Shown here: piece after piece, positions 42,633 to 47,279 of the stretch
Position numbering within the stretch: the first letter of the stretch is position 1
Layout: every line of letters begins with the position of its first letter
NCBI GenBank assembly: GCA_038211855.1
Contig: JBBQVE010000010.1
Coordinates: 1 to 55,482 of the forward strand
Direction: 5' to 3'
Length of the DNA stretch: 55,482 bases
From: Candidatus Saccharimonadales bacterium
Lineage (GTDB): Bacteria > Patescibacteriota > Saccharimonadia > Saccharimonadales > SZUA-47
Program-made: the position numbers and the translations under genes
Notes under the pieces: model-generated
Seen by the model: only the letters and a program-made list of their open reading frames with translations
The model's database searches: none
Told to the model about the DNA's origin: nothing

Positions 42633-43565
42633 ATGGCAGAAGACTCCAAGATTCATGACGTGATAATGATTGGCGCTGGACCGGCGGCCTTAGCTGCTGC
42701 TTTGTATACGTCGCGCGAAGATGTTGAGACCTTATTGTTCGAGAAAGGCGTTGTAGGCGGTCTGGCAGCCATCACTGACAAAGTTGATAACTACCCTGGC
42801 TTCCCGCAAGGCATTGAAGGCTTGACGCTGGCTGACAATCTGCGCTTGCAGGCCGAACGTTTTGGAGCCGTCATTGAACTCGGTGAAGTTACGACCGTCA
42901 AAAAAGACGGCGATCTCATCAAGCTCGAAACCACTAGCGGCGACATGTTTGCACGGGCTGTCTTGGTAGCCACTGGCAGCGAATACATCAAGTTAGGCGT
43001 GCCCGGTGAGTCAGAATACTATGGCCGCGGTGTTCATAACTGTGCGACCTGTGATGGGGCATTTTATCGTGACAAAAAGCTGGTCGTCGTTGGGAGTGGT
43101 AACTCTGCTGCCCAAGAAGCGCTCTTTTTGACGCGCTATGCCACCGAAATTGATATCCTGATTCGTGGCGACCATTGGAAGGCCAGCGATGTCCTTATAA
43201 AAGAGGTCGAACAGAACCCAAAACTGCGTGTTCATTTCAATACCTCGACAGAAGAAATCGTGGGGGAAGATAAGAAGGTAGTCAAAGTTGTCGGCAAAGA
43301 CTCTAAAACTGGTGAGTTGAGAGACTTTATAACAGATGGCGTCTTCGTTTTTATCGGCCTGAGGCCAGTCACTTATTTCTTGAAGGATTCTGGCGTCGAA
43401 ATTGACGATGCTGGTTTTATAAAAACCGATCTCAAGCTACAAACTGCCGTGCCAGGCATTTTTGCAGCCGGTGACGTCCGTTCTGGCGCAACGCTACAAA
43501 TCGCCAGCGCCGTTGGTGAAGGTGCCAGCGCCGCCCTCGCCATACGTGAGTATTTAGAAGCCTAA
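42633..43565 (+). CDS. trxB: Thioredoxin reductase
   Basis: IGAGPA, NYPGF, CATCDG, VGSGNSA, FAAGDV. Confidence 0.95.
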   Translation: MAEDSKIHDVIMIGAGPAALAAALYTSREDVETLLFEKGVVGGLAAITDKVDNYPGFPQGIEGLTLADNLRLQAERFGAVIELGEVTTVKKDGDLIKLETTSGDMFARAVLVATGSEYIKLGVPGESEYYGRGVHNCATCDGAFYRDKKLVVVGSGNSAAQEALFLTRYATEIDILIRGDHWKASDVLIKEVEQNPKLRVHFNTSTEEIVGEDKKVVKVVGKDSKTGELRDFITDGVFVFIGLRPVTYFLKDSGVEIDDAGFIKTDLKLQTAVPGIFAAGDVRSGATLQIASAVGEGASAALAIREYLEA

Positions 43566-43570
43566 GGAAG

Positions 43571-44125
43571 ATGAAACAATACAAACTTGTGCAAGTCGGA
43601 AATCCAACCCTCAGGCAACCTTGTGTTGCCTATGCAGCCAAAGATATTCTTAGTGTAAAGGTGCACGACACCGTAGAACGTATGAAATACACCATGCGCG
43701 TATTTCATGGCGTCGGTTTGGCTGCACCGCAAATCGGCCTGCAAAAACAGCTGTTCGTCCTGCGGCTCGCACCGAACAAATTCCGCCCCGGCCTCAAACA
43801 AGTTCGTCCGTACGCAGTTTTTAATCCCGAAATTACATCTTACGACAGGCATACGGAAGAAGATTGGGAAGGCTGTTTTAGTGTAGCCGAAGCCAATTTG
43901 TTCGCCAAGGTCCATCGGTCTGACAAAATTACCGTCAAATACATCGATCTATCAGGCAGGGAAATAACCAAAGATCTCGACGGCCTCGAAGCGCGAGTCT
44001 TTCAACACGAGTATGACCATCTTCAGGGGCTAGTGTTTTTAGACAGGAAGCCAGATGCCGCAACATTCATGAGCGCCAACGAATACAAGGCCATGCGTCA
44101 ACAAGAATCTCTTAATTATGCTTAA
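43571..44125 (+). CDS. def: Peptide deformylase
   Basis: GVGLAAPQIG, EGCFS, QHEYDHLQG. Confidence 0.95.
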   Translation: MKQYKLVQVGNPTLRQPCVAYAAKDILSVKVHDTVERMKYTMRVFHGVGLAAPQIGLQKQLFVLRLAPNKFRPGLKQVRPYAVFNPEITSYDRHTEEDWEGCFSVAEANLFAKVHRSDKITVKYIDLSGREITKDLDGLEARVFQHEYDHLQGLVFLDRKPDAATFMSANEYKAMRQQESLNYA

Positions 44126-44480
44126 GGGATTCTCTAAGGTGGTCGGCAGATAAAACCAGTACAAGGCTTTCTCTCCCAAAAATCTGACTGATGAGAGTTT
44201 TAGCGTCATCAATAGCTCTCGTAAGTTCGGACTCATCAGTCGCTTCGTAAGAGTTGGGTGACCGGCCGGAACAAGGTATTTAAGGCTCACTGTAGTACCA
44301 ATATCCACTATCGGGCTGATACTGCCGAGTGGCTTGTCATTCAGAATACGTCGTACGAGGGCATCAATCGAGGGCCTGAAATCTCGCCCTTTTATAGCAA
44401 TTGTCGAGAAAGACTTGTCGATATCCTGGAAAAATGTTTAGGATTTGTTTATCTATGCTGAATTCGATGTTTCGAATCAT
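44112..44480 (-). pseudogene. Free-standing B3/B4 (PheRS-type editing) domain gene remnant
   Basis: Three fragments in two frames: MIRNIEFSIDKQILNIFPGY / FRPSIDALVRRILNDKPLGSISPIVDIGTTVSLKYLVPAG / ELTRAIDDAKTLISQIFG. Its ATG overlaps the phhA stop (TAATG). Confidence 0.75.
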
Positions 44481-45277
44481 TATTTTCTCCTTTTGAATTC
44501 GTGCGTTAGTTTGACGACCTCTGCATCTGTGACCTCCCTGAAGAAGCCACCAACTACCTTCAGTATTTGCTTGATCGAGGTTCCAGCAAAGAAGATTTTT
44601 TGAAACTCATCGATGCGGTATGGCGTGAGCCCCATAGCCGTAATATCCAATTGTCGAATGTTCGCTGTTCGAAAGTTGTTAAGCTCTCCAACAGATGACA
44701 GTAAGCCTGCACCGAAGGCCTTAACTCCATTTTTTGTTTGCAATACACCAAACTCGCCAGAAAACCACCAGACATTGGCAATAAAGCTTTTTGCTTCTTC
44801 GGTTTCAACTCGCACCAAAGCCAACCCGGCTAAACGATGTAGTTCGGCGAGTTCAGGTATTGATAAAAGTGTACCGTGACCAATGACTTCGTGGATAATA
44901 TCAGGTTCATCTGTGTAAAACGGGCTACTTGGATGACGGAGGTATTGGGTAGAAAGGAAGAGGCCGTCTCCTAGAGCTCTAAAAAAAGTATCACGTTCTG
45001 CGAGGCCTCCAACTGATCGGAATCGAAAGCCAGATAACTGATTGAGGCGCTTTGTCACCTGAGAAAGCTGCGGCACTTGATTTTTAGGCAGTGCTAATTT
45101 GTCGCGTGCTTCAAGAATCCGGGTAGCAACGCACTCATCCCACAAGGGAACGAGGGCGTGTGAAACAGCCGACCATACTTGGTTTTCGGCCGTCGAGTAT
45201 TTGATATCCTTCGGCTGTCCTAAAGGTCCAGCCGCGAGTGAAACTATTTCCTGCCGTCGTTTTGTAAAATTACTCAT
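44480..45277 (-). CDS. phhA: Pterin-dependent aromatic amino acid hydroxylase (phenylalanine 4-monooxygenase-like)
   Basis: VPQL..V...L..LSGF, STQYLRH, YTDEPDIIHEVIGH (Fe ligands), EFG, FGAGLLSS.GE; SD AAGGAG. Confidence 0.9.
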   Translation of the reverse strand: MSNFTKRRQEIVSLAAGPLGQPKDIKYSTAENQVWSAVSHALVPLWDECVATRILEARDKLALPKNQVPQLSQVTKRLNQLSGFRFRSVGGLAERDTFFRALGDGLFLSTQYLRHPSSPFYTDEPDIIHEVIGHGTLLSIPELAELHRLAGLALVRVETEEAKSFIANVWWFSGEFGVLQTKNGVKAFGAGLLSSVGELNNFRTANIRQLDITAMGLTPYRIDEFQKIFFAGTSIKQILKVVGGFFREVTDAEVVKLTHEFKRRK

Positions 45278-45294
45278 AAATAACTCCTTAAAAT

Positions 45295-45322
45295 AAAAAA
45301 AGTACCGTTCTTTAGGCGGTAC
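45295..45322 (-). terminator. Attenuator terminator in the phhA leader
   Basis: Minus strand GTACCG-CCTAAAGAA-CGGTAC-TTTTTTT, ending just before the phhA SD. Confidence 0.85.
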
Positions 45323-45346
45323 ACAGCTGCGTATAAAGGTTATTAT

Positions 45347-45418
45347 TTACGAACGAACAGCAGATACCGCCAAAATATAGTCGGTATATGTATAAAGGAA
45401 GTTTGTTATAGTTTTCAC
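45347..45418 (-). CDS. Tyr/Phe-rich leader peptide MKTITNFLYTYTDYILAVSAVRS of the phhA attenuator
   Basis: GTG start 6 nt after the extended -10 TGTTAAAAT; F-L-Y-T-Y-T-D-Y codons overlap pairing segment 1. Confidence 0.8.
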   Translation of the reverse strand: MKTITNFLYTYTDYILAVSAVRS

Positions 45419-45441
45419 ATACTTATTTTAACATAGCATAA

Positions 45442-46116
45442 CTACTTTTGCAATGGAAAGTTCTGGCGGTAGCGGTTCGGAAAGTTCGTACAAAGCATAA
45501 TATCCGGAAAAAATGTCTGAGCAGCCCACTGCCAAATGCGGTTATCGATCGTATAAACCATGAGTTGTTTCTTATAGCGTTTACAAAGCAGGTAGGGAAG
45601 CGGCCCGAGCCACCATTTATTAAGGCTGATGCCGCTAAAACCTTGATCGCGGGCATATTCAATCGCCTTGATTGGTCCCTCCTGGTAGGGTTGTGAGATA
45701 AGGGTTATAGCGTGCGGGAACGCTTTCTTTAATTCATAAAGTGCCACTGCATGCGGACTCGTAAAGCCGACGCTACTAGGGATGCCTTGCTGTTTAAGGT
45801 AAGCGACAAGGTCATTTATGACATCAGCACACTTGATGTCAAACATGAAGGCAGTGTTTATATCTTTTCGCTCCAAGAGTGTCTCTAGTTTCAGAAGCGT
45901 TGGCACGCGCTTTTTAAGCTCTGCATAGGTCGCTGGAATGTTGTTGCCAGTCAGTGTCTGTTTTAAATCACCGTGGTACATCACAAACACCTTGTCAGAC
46001 GTACAGTGAATATCCGTCTCGATATATATCGGTTTAAAAGTCTGGGCGAGCTTCATTGCTTCCAGACTATTTTCGTGTACAAGACCGCCAGCTCCACGGT
46101 GGCTCACTAAACTCAT
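45442..46116 (-). CDS. Glycerophosphodiester phosphodiesterase (GDPD family)
   Basis: SHRGA...ENSL.A, IETDIH.T.D...V.YH, FDIK, VYTID. Confidence 0.9.
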   Translation of the reverse strand: MSLVSHRGAGGLVHENSLEAMKLAQTFKPIYIETDIHCTSDKVFVMYHGDLKQTLTGNNIPATYAELKKRVPTLLKLETLLERKDINTAFMFDIKCADVINDLVAYLKQQGIPSSVGFTSPHAVALYELKKAFPHAITLISQPYQEGPIKAIEYARDQGFSGISLNKWWLGPLPYLLCKRYKKQLMVYTIDNRIWQWAAQTFFPDIMLCTNFPNRYRQNFPLQK

Positions 46117-46163
46117 ATGCTGTAGTGTACAATATATCTAGAAATAACGGAGAAAAACACGAC

Positions 46164-46700
46164 ATGGGTTACCCATTCAACAAGATTCCTTTTGGTAAAG
46201 ATGGTGAGTTTGTCACCACGGTTATAGAGATTCCTAAAGGCTCAACGCACAAGGTTGAGTGGCGCCGCGACCAAGAATTTTTTGCGCTCGACCGTGTCGA
46301 ACCAGGCATCTTCCAGAAACCAGTTAATTATGGTTTTATCCCACAGACGCTTGATGAAGACGGTGATGAACTCGACACGTTGTTGGTAACCGATGAGCCA
46401 GTTATGACAGGTGTCGTGATCGAAGAGTGCCGCGTGATTGGCATGGTTGATTTTGAAGATGACGGCGAAAACGACCACAAGATTATCCTTGTCCCGATGG
46501 ACGATCGCCACTCTGGCCCGATCATGCACGTAAATGAACTCGGCGATAAGTGGAAGCAGCAGATAACGCACCACTTCACGCACTACAAAGATCTCAAGAA
46601 GCCAGGTTCTACGGTTGTCCGCAGTATCGTCGGTCCGGAAGAAGCCTGGAAGGTCATCCGCGAGTGCTCAGAACGAGCTCAAGCCGATAAGTGGTGGTAA
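46164..46700 (+). CDS. ppa: Inorganic pyrophosphatase (family I)
   Basis: VIEIPKGS, LDR, NYGFIPQTL.EDGDELD, DDGENDHKI, FTHYKDL; start MGYP. Confidence 0.95.
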   Translation: MGYPFNKIPFGKDGEFVTTVIEIPKGSTHKVEWRRDQEFFALDRVEPGIFQKPVNYGFIPQTLDEDGDELDTLLVTDEPVMTGVVIEECRVIGMVDFEDDGENDHKIILVPMDDRHSGPIMHVNELGDKWKQQITHHFTHYKDLKKPGSTVVRSIVGPEEAWKVIRECSERAQADKWW

Positions 46701-46706
46701 TCGTCT

Positions 46707-47279
46707 ATGAACTGGGAAAAAGTCTGGAGCGGTAAGATGTGGGTGGCTGAGCAATCAACTCAGTCTGATGGACGGATATTTGAGAGAGTTTTGCGTGCAC
46801 CTGGCAGCCGAATTTTGATCGTTAAAAACGGTAAATTACTTCTAACTCGCGAAAAGCGTGGTGAACTCGACGGAGCAGTTGATTATCGTTTGCCAGGCGG
46901 AAAAGTCTTTGATACCAACGAGGCTTTCCAAGCGTATGTAGAGTCTAGTAAAGATATTGTTGACGCTAGTCGTGATTCGATTTCCAAAGAAGCCGTCGAA
47001 GAAGCTGGCATCATCGTAGAATCATCTAAGCTCAGCTATCTCGGTGTGGATGTGCTAGGCGCGACGGTGTCGTGGGACTTGCATTACTGGTTGGCCACTG
47101 AGTTTGAAATGCACGAAGCTGGTGCGCAGTTTCATGAATCAGAAGCCGACGAAATTGAAGGCAGTATTTGGTTAGCTCTCGGTGAGGTGGCTACGCTCGT
47201 TTTGAATCAAAAACAGTTTTCGGAAAGCCGCTCGGCCATGATGATTACGCGCTACATAAATGGTAGTCTAGGAGTATGA
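46707..47279 (+). CDS. NUDIX hydrolase
   Basis: YRLPGGKV followed by an insertion and KEAVEEAG. Confidence 0.8.
   Translation: MNWEKVWSGKMWVAEQSTQSDGRIFERVLRAPGSRILIVKNGKLLLTREKRGELDGAVDYRLPGGKVFDTNEAFQAYVESSKDIVDASRDSISKEAVEEAGIIVESSKLSYLGVDVLGATVSWDLHYWLATEFEMHEAGAQFHESEADEIEGSIWLALGEVATLVLNQKQFSESRSAMMITRYINGSLGV

Follow-up and report, generated by a model that had tools for sequence, protein, structure and literature searches.

The window studied here is a stretch of 55,482 nucleotides (nt) from a Candidatus Saccharimonadales bacterium (contig JBBQVE010000010.1), and it carries phhA, whose product is a predicted phenylalanine 4-monooxygenase. We find that the leader ahead of phhA is very probably a ribosome-mediated transcription attenuator of the leader-peptide type, tuned to tyrosine. 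The upstream regions of phhA in relatives, whose comparison the preliminary description had proposed, hold a Tyr-rich leaderless frame, a terminator and an antiterminator in all nine loci. This comparison argues strongly for the attenuator, which that description had put forward from the window alone.

The elements of the window locus are listed below in the order of transcription. Leader nt 1 is position 45418, and all elements are read on the minus strand.

45442-46116, minus strand: GDPD-family gene (Pfam), upstream and co-directional, its stop 23 nt ahead of the leader frame
45425-45453, minus strand: promoter with -35 TTGCAA (45453-45448), 17-nt spacer, TG (45433-45432) and -10 TAAAAT (45430-45425)
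45347-45418, minus strand: leader frame opening with GTG, 23 codons and a stop, peptide MKTITNFLYTYTDYILAVSAVRS
45394-45392, 45388-45386 and 45379-45377, minus strand: Tyr codons 9, 11 and 14 of the leader, three Tyr in 23 codons
45382-45387, minus strand: segment 1, AUACCG, on codons Tyr11-Thr12-Asp13, pairing with CGGUAU of segment 2 (putative anti-antiterminator)
45364-45371, minus strand: segment 2, GGCGGUAU, within the leader frame on codons 16-19, partner of segment 1 or segment 3
45315-45322, minus strand: segment 3, GUACCGCC, serving the terminator as 5′ arm and the antiterminator as 3′ strand
45302-45307, minus strand: segment 4, CGGUAC, followed by T7 at 45295-45301
45284-45289, minus strand: Shine-Dalgarno AAGGAG of phhA, 6 nt ahead of the ATG and in neither hairpin
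44480-45277, minus strand: phhA, ATG at 45277, coding for a 265-aa biopterin-dependent aromatic amino acid hydroxylase, the gene presumed to be regulated

The four segments, the T-run, the extended -10, the 23-codon GTG frame, the AAGGAG and the phhA ATG all lie where the preliminary description had located them. The promoter is of the sigma-70 type, overlaps the 3′ end of the GDPD-family gene and is the sole promoter-like site in a scan of 43500-47000 (shuffles: mean 4.9). Its -10 ends 6 nt ahead of the GTG, which starts at the seventh base past it, so the transcript is expected to begin at or beside the start codon as a leaderless mRNA. Segments 3 and 4 with the T7 make an intrinsic terminator of a 6-bp stem and a 9-nt loop (-6.1 kcal/mol). 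The competing 2:3 duplex is at -14.4 kcal/mol, reached by 11 of 500 shuffled frames, and the local 1:2 hairpin is at -9.2 kcal/mol.

From these elements we infer leader translation, termination at the hairpin and a response to Tyr-tRNA. Transcription would begin at the GTG and a ribosome would load on the 5′ end of the leaderless mRNA. When charged tRNA-Tyr is scarce, the ribosome would stall when its A site reaches Tyr codon 9 or 11, a position that covers segment 1. Segment 2 would then be free to pair with segment 3 once the latter is made, the terminator would be blocked and RNA polymerase would read into phhA, whose product would turn phenylalanine into tyrosine. When Tyr is plentiful, the ribosome would run over segment 2 to the stop codon, the 3:4 terminator would form and transcription would end at the T-run.

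The gene itself is rare. It was found in one of the 61 nearest genomes (the window's own), in two of 401 genomes of a class sample, in two of 401 of a phylum sample and in one of 60 genomes of the second carrier's order. The nine loci compared are the window, three on genome contigs of Saccharibacteria metagenome-assembled genomes and five on metagenome contigs. Identity of the eight other PhhA proteins to that of the window is 51-77%. As the genes on either side change from locus to locus, the leader and phhA appear to travel as a unit.

In 9/9 loci a 23-25-codon frame, which has 3-5 Tyr and lacks Trp, is followed by a hairpin and a T-run upstream of phhA. The eight other leader peptides are as follows.

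L008: MKSFNGNTYLYTDYILAVFAVRS
L010 (GTG start): KATKFNSYFYTDYTQAVFSVRS
L006: MRKALSQAYLYSISFRGGVSLMSY
L007: MQLVSLQSYSYTYPETRCLFSMY
L009: MTTFIQVMTKYYGYLKSGGLLCYTL
L002: MSNMISVQTYLVPYYPADYLTVS
L003: MSHINTVQTYLVPYYSADYFTVS
L004: MNISFGKRYYEVPHYSADYLRMSYI

Tyr makes up 33 of the 203 non-start residues in the nine leaders and 26 of the 63 codons at positions 9-15. Against a background of 3.19%, taken from long frames of the genome, the binomial tails are 2e-14 for all residues and 1e-22 for positions 9-15; against 5.2%, derived from the leaders' own base composition, they are 7e-9 and 2e-17. Both pairs of values treat the loci as independent although they are kin, and the nine fall into about four distinct leader types, so that the effective sample is small. 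Tyr is the sole residue enriched in all nine; Thr, Phe and others vary, with Phe at 0-3 per leader in no fixed position. Synonymous exchanges between TAT and TAC occur at the Tyr positions.

The surroundings of the frame are conserved as well. A -10-like hexamer ends 6-7 nt ahead of the leader start codon in 9/9 loci, with TGn in eight and, in seven, a -35 of at least 4/6 matches at 16-17 nt. By eye, no locus has a Shine-Dalgarno ahead of the leader. The first Tyr falls on codons 9-11 and segment 2 on leader nt 42-61; the stop codon begins at nt 70-76 and the terminator 5′ arm at nt 96-104. A T-run of 6-7, read by eye, closes the terminator in eight loci, while that of L008 is interrupted (UAAAUUUU).

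The antiterminator was sought at each locus as the best pairing site in the leader frame for the terminator 5′ arm with its 4 upstream nt and its loop. The best duplex falls at leader nt 42-61 in 9/9 loci and has -13.3 to -17.4 kcal/mol, whereas shuffled frames have means of -6.3 to -8.1 kcal/mol, with 0-11 of 500 matching the real frame. The terminator hairpins range from -6.1 to -16.9 kcal/mol. Seven loci use GGCGG:CCGCC; in L006 and L007 the pair is GGAGG:CCUCC and segment 4 is GGGAG. Cross-pairing between the two types is poor (-4.7 to -10.9 kcal/mol). The antiterminator is extended on one side in the window, L008 and L010 (GGCGGUA:UACCGCC) and on the opposite side in L009 (UCAGGCGG:CCGCCUGA) and in L003 and L004 (UUCGGCGG:CCGCCGAA).

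In the PhhA tree the window groups with L006 and L007 (support 85/96) and L008 with L010. This topology implies that the leader type of the window, L008 and L010 is the older one and that the L006/L007 lineage changed three segments together.

Covariation was scored on a MAFFT alignment of the nine leaders that was not fitted to structure. It replaced a longer first alignment of whole leaders, in which the terminators of the window and L010 were out of register. The one used still misplaces segment 2 of L007 by 3 columns and the terminators of L006 and L007 by 1, which lowers the pair counts. Even so, the 7 pairs of the antiterminator core are 84.1% paired, against 32-60% with the partner slid by 1-3 columns, and the 8 terminator pairs are 86.1% paired, against 29-60% when slid. 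The covariation scores are 0.194 for the antiterminator (shuffled 0.052) and 0.313 for the terminator (shuffled 0.112), and 0/500 shuffles reach either, although nine kin sequences may exceed such shuffles even without structure. The slid controls and the compensatory switch from GGCGG:CCGCC to GGAGG:CCUCC are in our judgment stronger arguments than the shuffle test. On these alignments we hold the antiterminator to be real, and the competing segments covary in both helices as the preliminary description anticipated.

The frame could instead encode a functional micro-protein or stay untranslated, the hairpin being an ordinary terminator or insulator and phhA being driven by another promoter. 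Two observations lean this way: the C-terminal half of the peptide (YTDYILAVSAVRS) is near-identical in the window, L008 and L010 despite PhhA proteins only 59-60% identical, and the window's GDPD gene runs co-directionally into the leader. However, outside Tyr and the RNA-pairing stretches the peptides are dissimilar over the four leader types, and the conserved stretches are the pairing segments. There is no promoter-like site between the terminator and phhA. At L004 the upstream gene is divergent and at L008 it seems, by eye, to own a hairpin, so the leader terminator is not merely that of the upstream gene. Moreover, a plain terminator needs no antiterminator and the one here covaries. We regard this explanation as very improbable.

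A tenth locus was tried and left out of the nine. In L011 (G497:C18, minus strand, 2325-2432; same phylum, other class) a distant PhhA (E 6e-49) stands behind a 12-codon frame that includes Tyr-Tyr (MMFNTYYASSGR), a hairpin taking in its stop codon and a strong terminator; a pairing in competition with the terminator was not found there.

The leader appears to have relatives well beyond phhA. A covariance model built from the same alignment with the terminator as its structure (R1) was run on the window's genome and 151 genomes of the class. It matched 37 of the 151 at E ≤0.1, only two of the 37 having phhA, and we inspected 34 matches outside the phhA loci. In sixteen of them a leaderless frame has Trp within an aromatic cluster (...NYFWFTD..., ...QYWFTG..., ...NWFFFTDTF...), and a GGCGG segment and an ACCGCC-loop-GGCGGTTTTTT terminator come next. 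A tryptophanyl-tRNA synthetase gene lies in the downstream operon of 11 of the 16; the reference trpS matches TIGR00233 at 296.7 bits, above the cut-off, and the rest were assigned by 63-72% identity to it. One of the 11 also has a 3-deoxy-D-arabino-heptulosonate 7-phosphate (DAHP) synthase. One of the 16 precedes a prephenate dehydratase and has 4 Phe. The trpS-type leaders mix Tyr, Phe and Trp.

Loci L021-L043 (in G147, G203, G058, G132, G066, G120, G158, G186, G135, G015, G161 and others) display a highly conserved UGGUUUACCG...GGCGGUUUGUUC...ACCGCC-loop-GGCGGUUUUUU with a Y(F)WF codon cluster.

Tyr-only leaders account for two of the 34 matches.

L028 (G098), locus 1462-1534, gene 1612-2628: MIQFLQSSVTKYSYRAYGGIFCYR, 4 Tyr and no Trp, before a CM_2+PDH_N fusion (tyrA-type)
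L020 (G036:C5), locus 421-499, gene 568-1632: MHFQNCIPSTNYYTVPYYPAAVLDMQ, 4 Tyr, R1 53.3 bits, close to L002-L004

By its codons and its gene, L028 is predicted to be a Tyr-type attenuator of a second kind, acting on a tyrA-type gene for chorismate mutase and prephenate dehydrogenase. Three further matches are Ile-rich (4-5 Ile), of which one precedes ileS (TIGR00392, 844 bits), and one is a Pro leader (3 Pro) before proS (TIGR00409, 417.6 bits). These four share the same layout (L036 in G064, L031 in G080, L035 in G110 and L042 in G195), and among them are MRRVILAIILKAVIVKRREFVV before ileS, MK(S/A)FV(T/A)KNIIVSIIKITHSEAV(S/K), which has 5 Ile and lies ahead of an unassigned 106-aa protein, and MVIETLLVLVTPPAPVSHRRLS with 3 Pro before proS. 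One match is rich in Phe and Tyr, with genes behind it that have no assignment. The remaining 11 (L037, L039-L041, L045-L049, L051, L052) gave no convincing leader and look like ordinary gene ends or noise.

A second model (R2), built from the 16 aromatic leaders, matched 25 of the 151 class genomes at E ≤0.001. The window's genome itself gave one further R1 match at E <0.001 and three weak ones at E 0.1-1. The former is a candidate second attenuator of the family in this genome:

L015, C1:147741-147815, minus strand: leaderless frame MSNLNRYNSYFWFTESTPAVFVIQ with an ACCGCC-loop-GGCGGT terminator, R1 37.6 and R2 92.4 bits

Behind it lie a 276-aa protein similar to ACT and prephenate dehydratase C-terminal sequences, a frame of 99 aa, a second leader-like element in degenerate form (R2, C1:146409-146541, 39.4 bits) and, farther on, trpS (C1:144584-145468). 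A strict scan of frames in this genome returned the phhA leader, the C1 aromatic leader and a third on C5 behind which no gene was found; it missed the degenerate C1 element that R2 matched. An earlier scan that ranked frames by their commonest residue had missed the C1 aromatic leader. By eye, neither the chorismate mutase gene (C4) nor tyrS (C9) of this genome has a leader of the phhA kind.

Hence the phhA element is not unique. Judged by the R1 and R2 matches, it belongs with related leader attenuators across the class, a family so far undescribed. The leader codons match the downstream gene, with Trp before trpS, Ile before ileS, Pro before proS and Tyr alone before two tyrosine-making enzymes. 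This match would serve as a natural specificity control and comes closer to an experimental test than the other evidence here.

The physiology fits an opening of the switch at low Tyr-tRNA. The phhA product matches Biopterin_H (PF00351, E 6e-47) and its closest solved relatives are phenylalanine hydroxylases (6.5e-34). H129, H134 and E175, which we take to be the 2-His-1-Glu iron site, are invariant across 4 PhhA sequences. In animals, hydroxylation of the PhhA type is an anabolic route to tyrosine.

The window's genome is 1.06 Mb in size and 98% complete. Profile searches of it gave no match to DAHP_synth_1, Chorismate_synt or PDT (prephenate dehydratase), and PDH_N is only sub-threshold (18.3 bits against a cut-off of 26.5). 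Since no DAHP synthase, chorismate synthase or prephenate dehydrogenase is matched, hydroxylation of imported phenylalanine is the only visible tyrosine route, and PhhA is likely the tyrosine source of this genome. The genome has one tRNA-Tyr and a tRNA-synt_1b gene of the size of a tyrosyl-tRNA synthetase (424-aa frame). With PhhA as the sole visible route, a switch that opens when Tyr-tRNA falls would fit. A stand-alone chorismate mutase is encoded at C4:15278-15526 (51 bits).

Ribosome positions were simulated by forcing A-site nt -18 to +12 unpaired, which yields equilibrium estimates that agree with the attenuator model in part. In the window, L008, L010 and L006, the terminator probability is 0.00-0.04 with the footprint on Tyr9 or Tyr11, and 0.84, 0.94, 0.98 and 0.52, respectively, with it on the stop codon. 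In L007 the probability is 0.00 at Tyr9 and 0.26 at Tyr11. With segment 4 omitted as not yet transcribed, a stall at the first Tyr leaves 6.1-14.1 expected 2:3 pairs in 9/9 loci. In L002-L004 under this omission, segment 1 keeps segment 2 (0.0-2.7 2:3 pairs) unless masked; in the other six loci 2:3 wins at equilibrium.

Several observations weigh against the tyrosine attenuator. A ribosome stalled at Tyr14 in the window, L008 and L010, or at Tyr14, 15 or 19 in L002-L004, covers segment 2 and gives a terminator probability of 0.94-0.99. Of the proposal in the preliminary description that stalling at the Tyr codons frees segment 2, the part on the first Tyr codons (9, 11) is retained, as only they are placed for read-through, while a stall at Tyr14 would favour termination. 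In L007 the antiterminator persists with the ribosome on the stop codon (terminator probability 0.00), and in L009 and L002-L004 the terminator prevails in nearly every footprint state, the stop codon included. Lacking a clean equilibrium switch in L007, L009 and L002-L004, the model requires co-transcriptional kinetics in about half of the loci. The classical trp attenuator likewise depends on such kinetics.

The short 1:2 hairpin lacks significance at single loci: segment 2 has a partner of 6-7 bp at leader nt ~28-44 in eight of nine loci, but shuffles reach it in 12/300 to 141/300. The window leader starts with GTG, an initiator that works poorly on leaderless mRNAs in E. coli; seven of the nine loci use ATG and two GTG. 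The best NCBIfam match of PhhA, phenylalanine 4-monooxygenase NF008877 at 222.6 bits, does not reach the curated equivalog cut-off of 247. Pterin-4a-carbinolamine dehydratase (Pterin_4a) and GTP cyclohydrolase I (GTP_cyclohydroI) were not found in the window's genome, which leaves the cofactor supply of PhhA unexplained. The Tyr-type leader L020 precedes a Peptidase_M15/VanY-like gene and no phhA was found in its genome; it may be an orphaned leader or mark an unrecognised tyrosine link.

Taken by itself, moreover, the window is only suggestive and its evidence modest. The probability of at least 3 Tyr in 22 residues is 0.032 at the 3.19% background, and the fold z-score is -2.08, with 6/200 shuffles folding equally well. 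Such nominal single-locus statistics would suit a chance arrangement in AT-rich intergenic DNA. However, chance is contradicted by the comparative data, as the arrangement is kept in 9/9 loci with covariation and has related leaders in other genomes, and we give this explanation hardly any credence.

The switch may be real and its signal not specifically Tyr-tRNA. Translation rate, starvation for several amino acids, an RNA-binding protein or a small molecule could act on the terminator and antiterminator, the Tyr codons being incidental or contributory. The 4 Thr in the window leader, the poor placement of some Tyr codons for antitermination and the mixed residues of the trpS-type leaders, by which single-residue specificity is no family rule, speak for it. 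Nevertheless, Tyr is the only residue enriched throughout the phhA leaders, its codons are preserved by the TAT/TAC exchanges, and Tyr-only leaders precede two Tyr-producing enzymes, PhhA and the chorismate mutase-prephenate dehydrogenase fusion. Nor do the leaders match a riboswitch or T-box, and there is little conserved sequence for a ligand pocket beyond the pairing segments and Tyr codons. A signal other than Tyr-tRNA thus seems improbable to us.

Leader-peptide attenuators are textbook systems for Trp, Phe, His, Leu, Thr and Ile/Val. The phhA leader resembles the E. coli trpL (RF00513), pheA/pheST, his, leu, thr and ilv leaders in its short frame with clustered regulatory codons, its four segments with 2:3, 3:4 and putative 1:2 pairings, its intrinsic terminator just before the structural gene and the reach of a stop-codon ribosome into segment 2. 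It differs in its presumed regulatory residue (Tyr), its target (phhA, a usually catabolic hydroxylase), its predicted leaderless transcript with no Shine-Dalgarno for the leader and its host, a member of the Saccharibacteria within the candidate phyla radiation (CPR) with a genome of 1.06 Mb. The sole Rfam signal on the leaders is Trp_leader RF00513, with 18.2 bits (E 0.97) in the window and 29.1 bits in L004, below the gathering score of 41. No Rfam family reached threshold on any leader and the T-box covariance model had no match (leader at E ≤10, whole window at the gathering score, 16 related loci at E ≤0.1).

The B. subtilis tyrS leader is a Tyr-specific T-box riboswitch. Its logic would be the same, by analogy, as there a gene that replenishes Tyr-tRNA is antiterminated in response to uncharged tRNA-Tyr, and T-boxes, like the Saccharimonadia family, precede aminoacyl-tRNA synthetase genes (here trpS, ileS and proS). 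Unlike a T-box, the phhA leader of ~125 nt would sense through the ribosome with no direct binding of the tRNA.

Aromatic leaders on leaderless transcripts are known in C. glutamicum. The aroR-aroF attenuator there (Neshat et al. 2014, as summarised in PMC11802643) is similar in that a leader peptide with aromatic codons, Phe-Tyr-Phe in aroR, controls an aromatic amino acid gene by ribosome stalling. According to that summary it responds to Phe and is unaffected by Tyr, whereas the phhA-type leaders with 3-5 Tyr and no Trp precede Tyr-producing genes. For E. coli aroF, a table entry citing Camakaris 1980 (PMC2659441) records an old suggestion of a Tyr-tRNA-sensing attenuator.

The regulators of phhA described in the parts of the literature consulted are PhhR, a sigma-54 activator, TyrR and AsnC/Lrp-type neighbours (PMC1173090, PMC3223726), DNA-binding proteins that induce the same gene family for Phe/Tyr catabolism. 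In contrast, the control proposed here would be exerted by a cis-acting RNA, on when Tyr is short, and implies an anabolic role.

Full-text literature searches, with subscription journals and supplementary regulon or attenuator tables outside their coverage, turned up no account of a Tyr leader peptide, of phhA attenuation or of leader-peptide attenuation in Saccharibacteria, Patescibacteria or CPR; the preliminary description knew of no Tyr attenuator on phhA or in a CPR-like organism either. The mechanism class is textbook; as far as searched, the novelty lies in Tyr as the amino acid, in phhA as the target, in a leaderless form within this lineage and in the surrounding family.

Taken together, a wider reading seems to us somewhat more probable than its opposite. 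The Saccharimonadia would run a T-box-like regulon via ribosome stalling, in which one leaderless leader-peptide and terminator scaffold has been repeatedly re-coded: phhA and tyrA would have Tyr leaders, ileS Ile leaders, proS Pro leaders, and trpS operons, DAHP synthase and prephenate dehydratase leaders with Trp plus Tyr/Phe. The leader codons would report the role of the gene, the phhA member would be the first Tyr-specific attenuator and PhhA the organism's anabolic route to Tyr.

A Tyr-specific attenuator would fill a gap among the leader-peptide attenuators, the one aromatic example found with a Tyr codon, aroR, being reported as Tyr-insensitive in the summary seen (PMC11802643). The direction of the control, on when Tyr-tRNA is short, argues that the bacterial phenylalanine hydroxylase is biosynthetic here and not catabolic, and the switch points to how an episymbiont may cope with tyrosine shortage. 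Ultra-small CPR genomes would then retain elaborate cis-regulatory RNA, and as one scaffold recurs ahead of trpS, ileS and proS, standard annotation and Rfam may be overlooking an entire regulon. The codon content of leaders could also help to annotate genes of uncultured organisms, such as those for the 106-aa protein behind the Ile-rich leader and a 354-aa protein behind an aromatic leader.

Two of the contigs with phhA also carry S-adenosylmethionine (SAM) riboswitches above the Rfam gathering threshold, at L002:1534-1645 (minus strand, 51.3 bits) and L010:3333-3439 (minus strand, 50.1 bits), the latter upstream of an S-adenosylmethionine synthetase gene. These genomes thus also use classical riboswitches.

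The beginning of PhhA in L010 is unusual. At L010:1415-1470 a short frame after the terminator and Shine-Dalgarno starts with MKEFTNRR, similar to the N-terminus MSNFTKRR of the window's PhhA, and ends after 19 codons; the long PhhA frame resumes at 1456. It looks like an N-terminal rearrangement or a frameshift in that copy.

Right after phhA in the window (44042-44480, minus strand), a frame of 38 codons overlaps the end of phhA, and a stretch in a different frame follows that covers no more than positions 5-54 of the B3_4 profile, which has 174 positions (E 5e-4, 20.2 bits, below the cut-off of 29.3). The two look like what is left of a decayed B3/4-domain gene. This domain is the editing domain of phenylalanyl-tRNA synthetase, which clears Tyr-tRNA-Phe.

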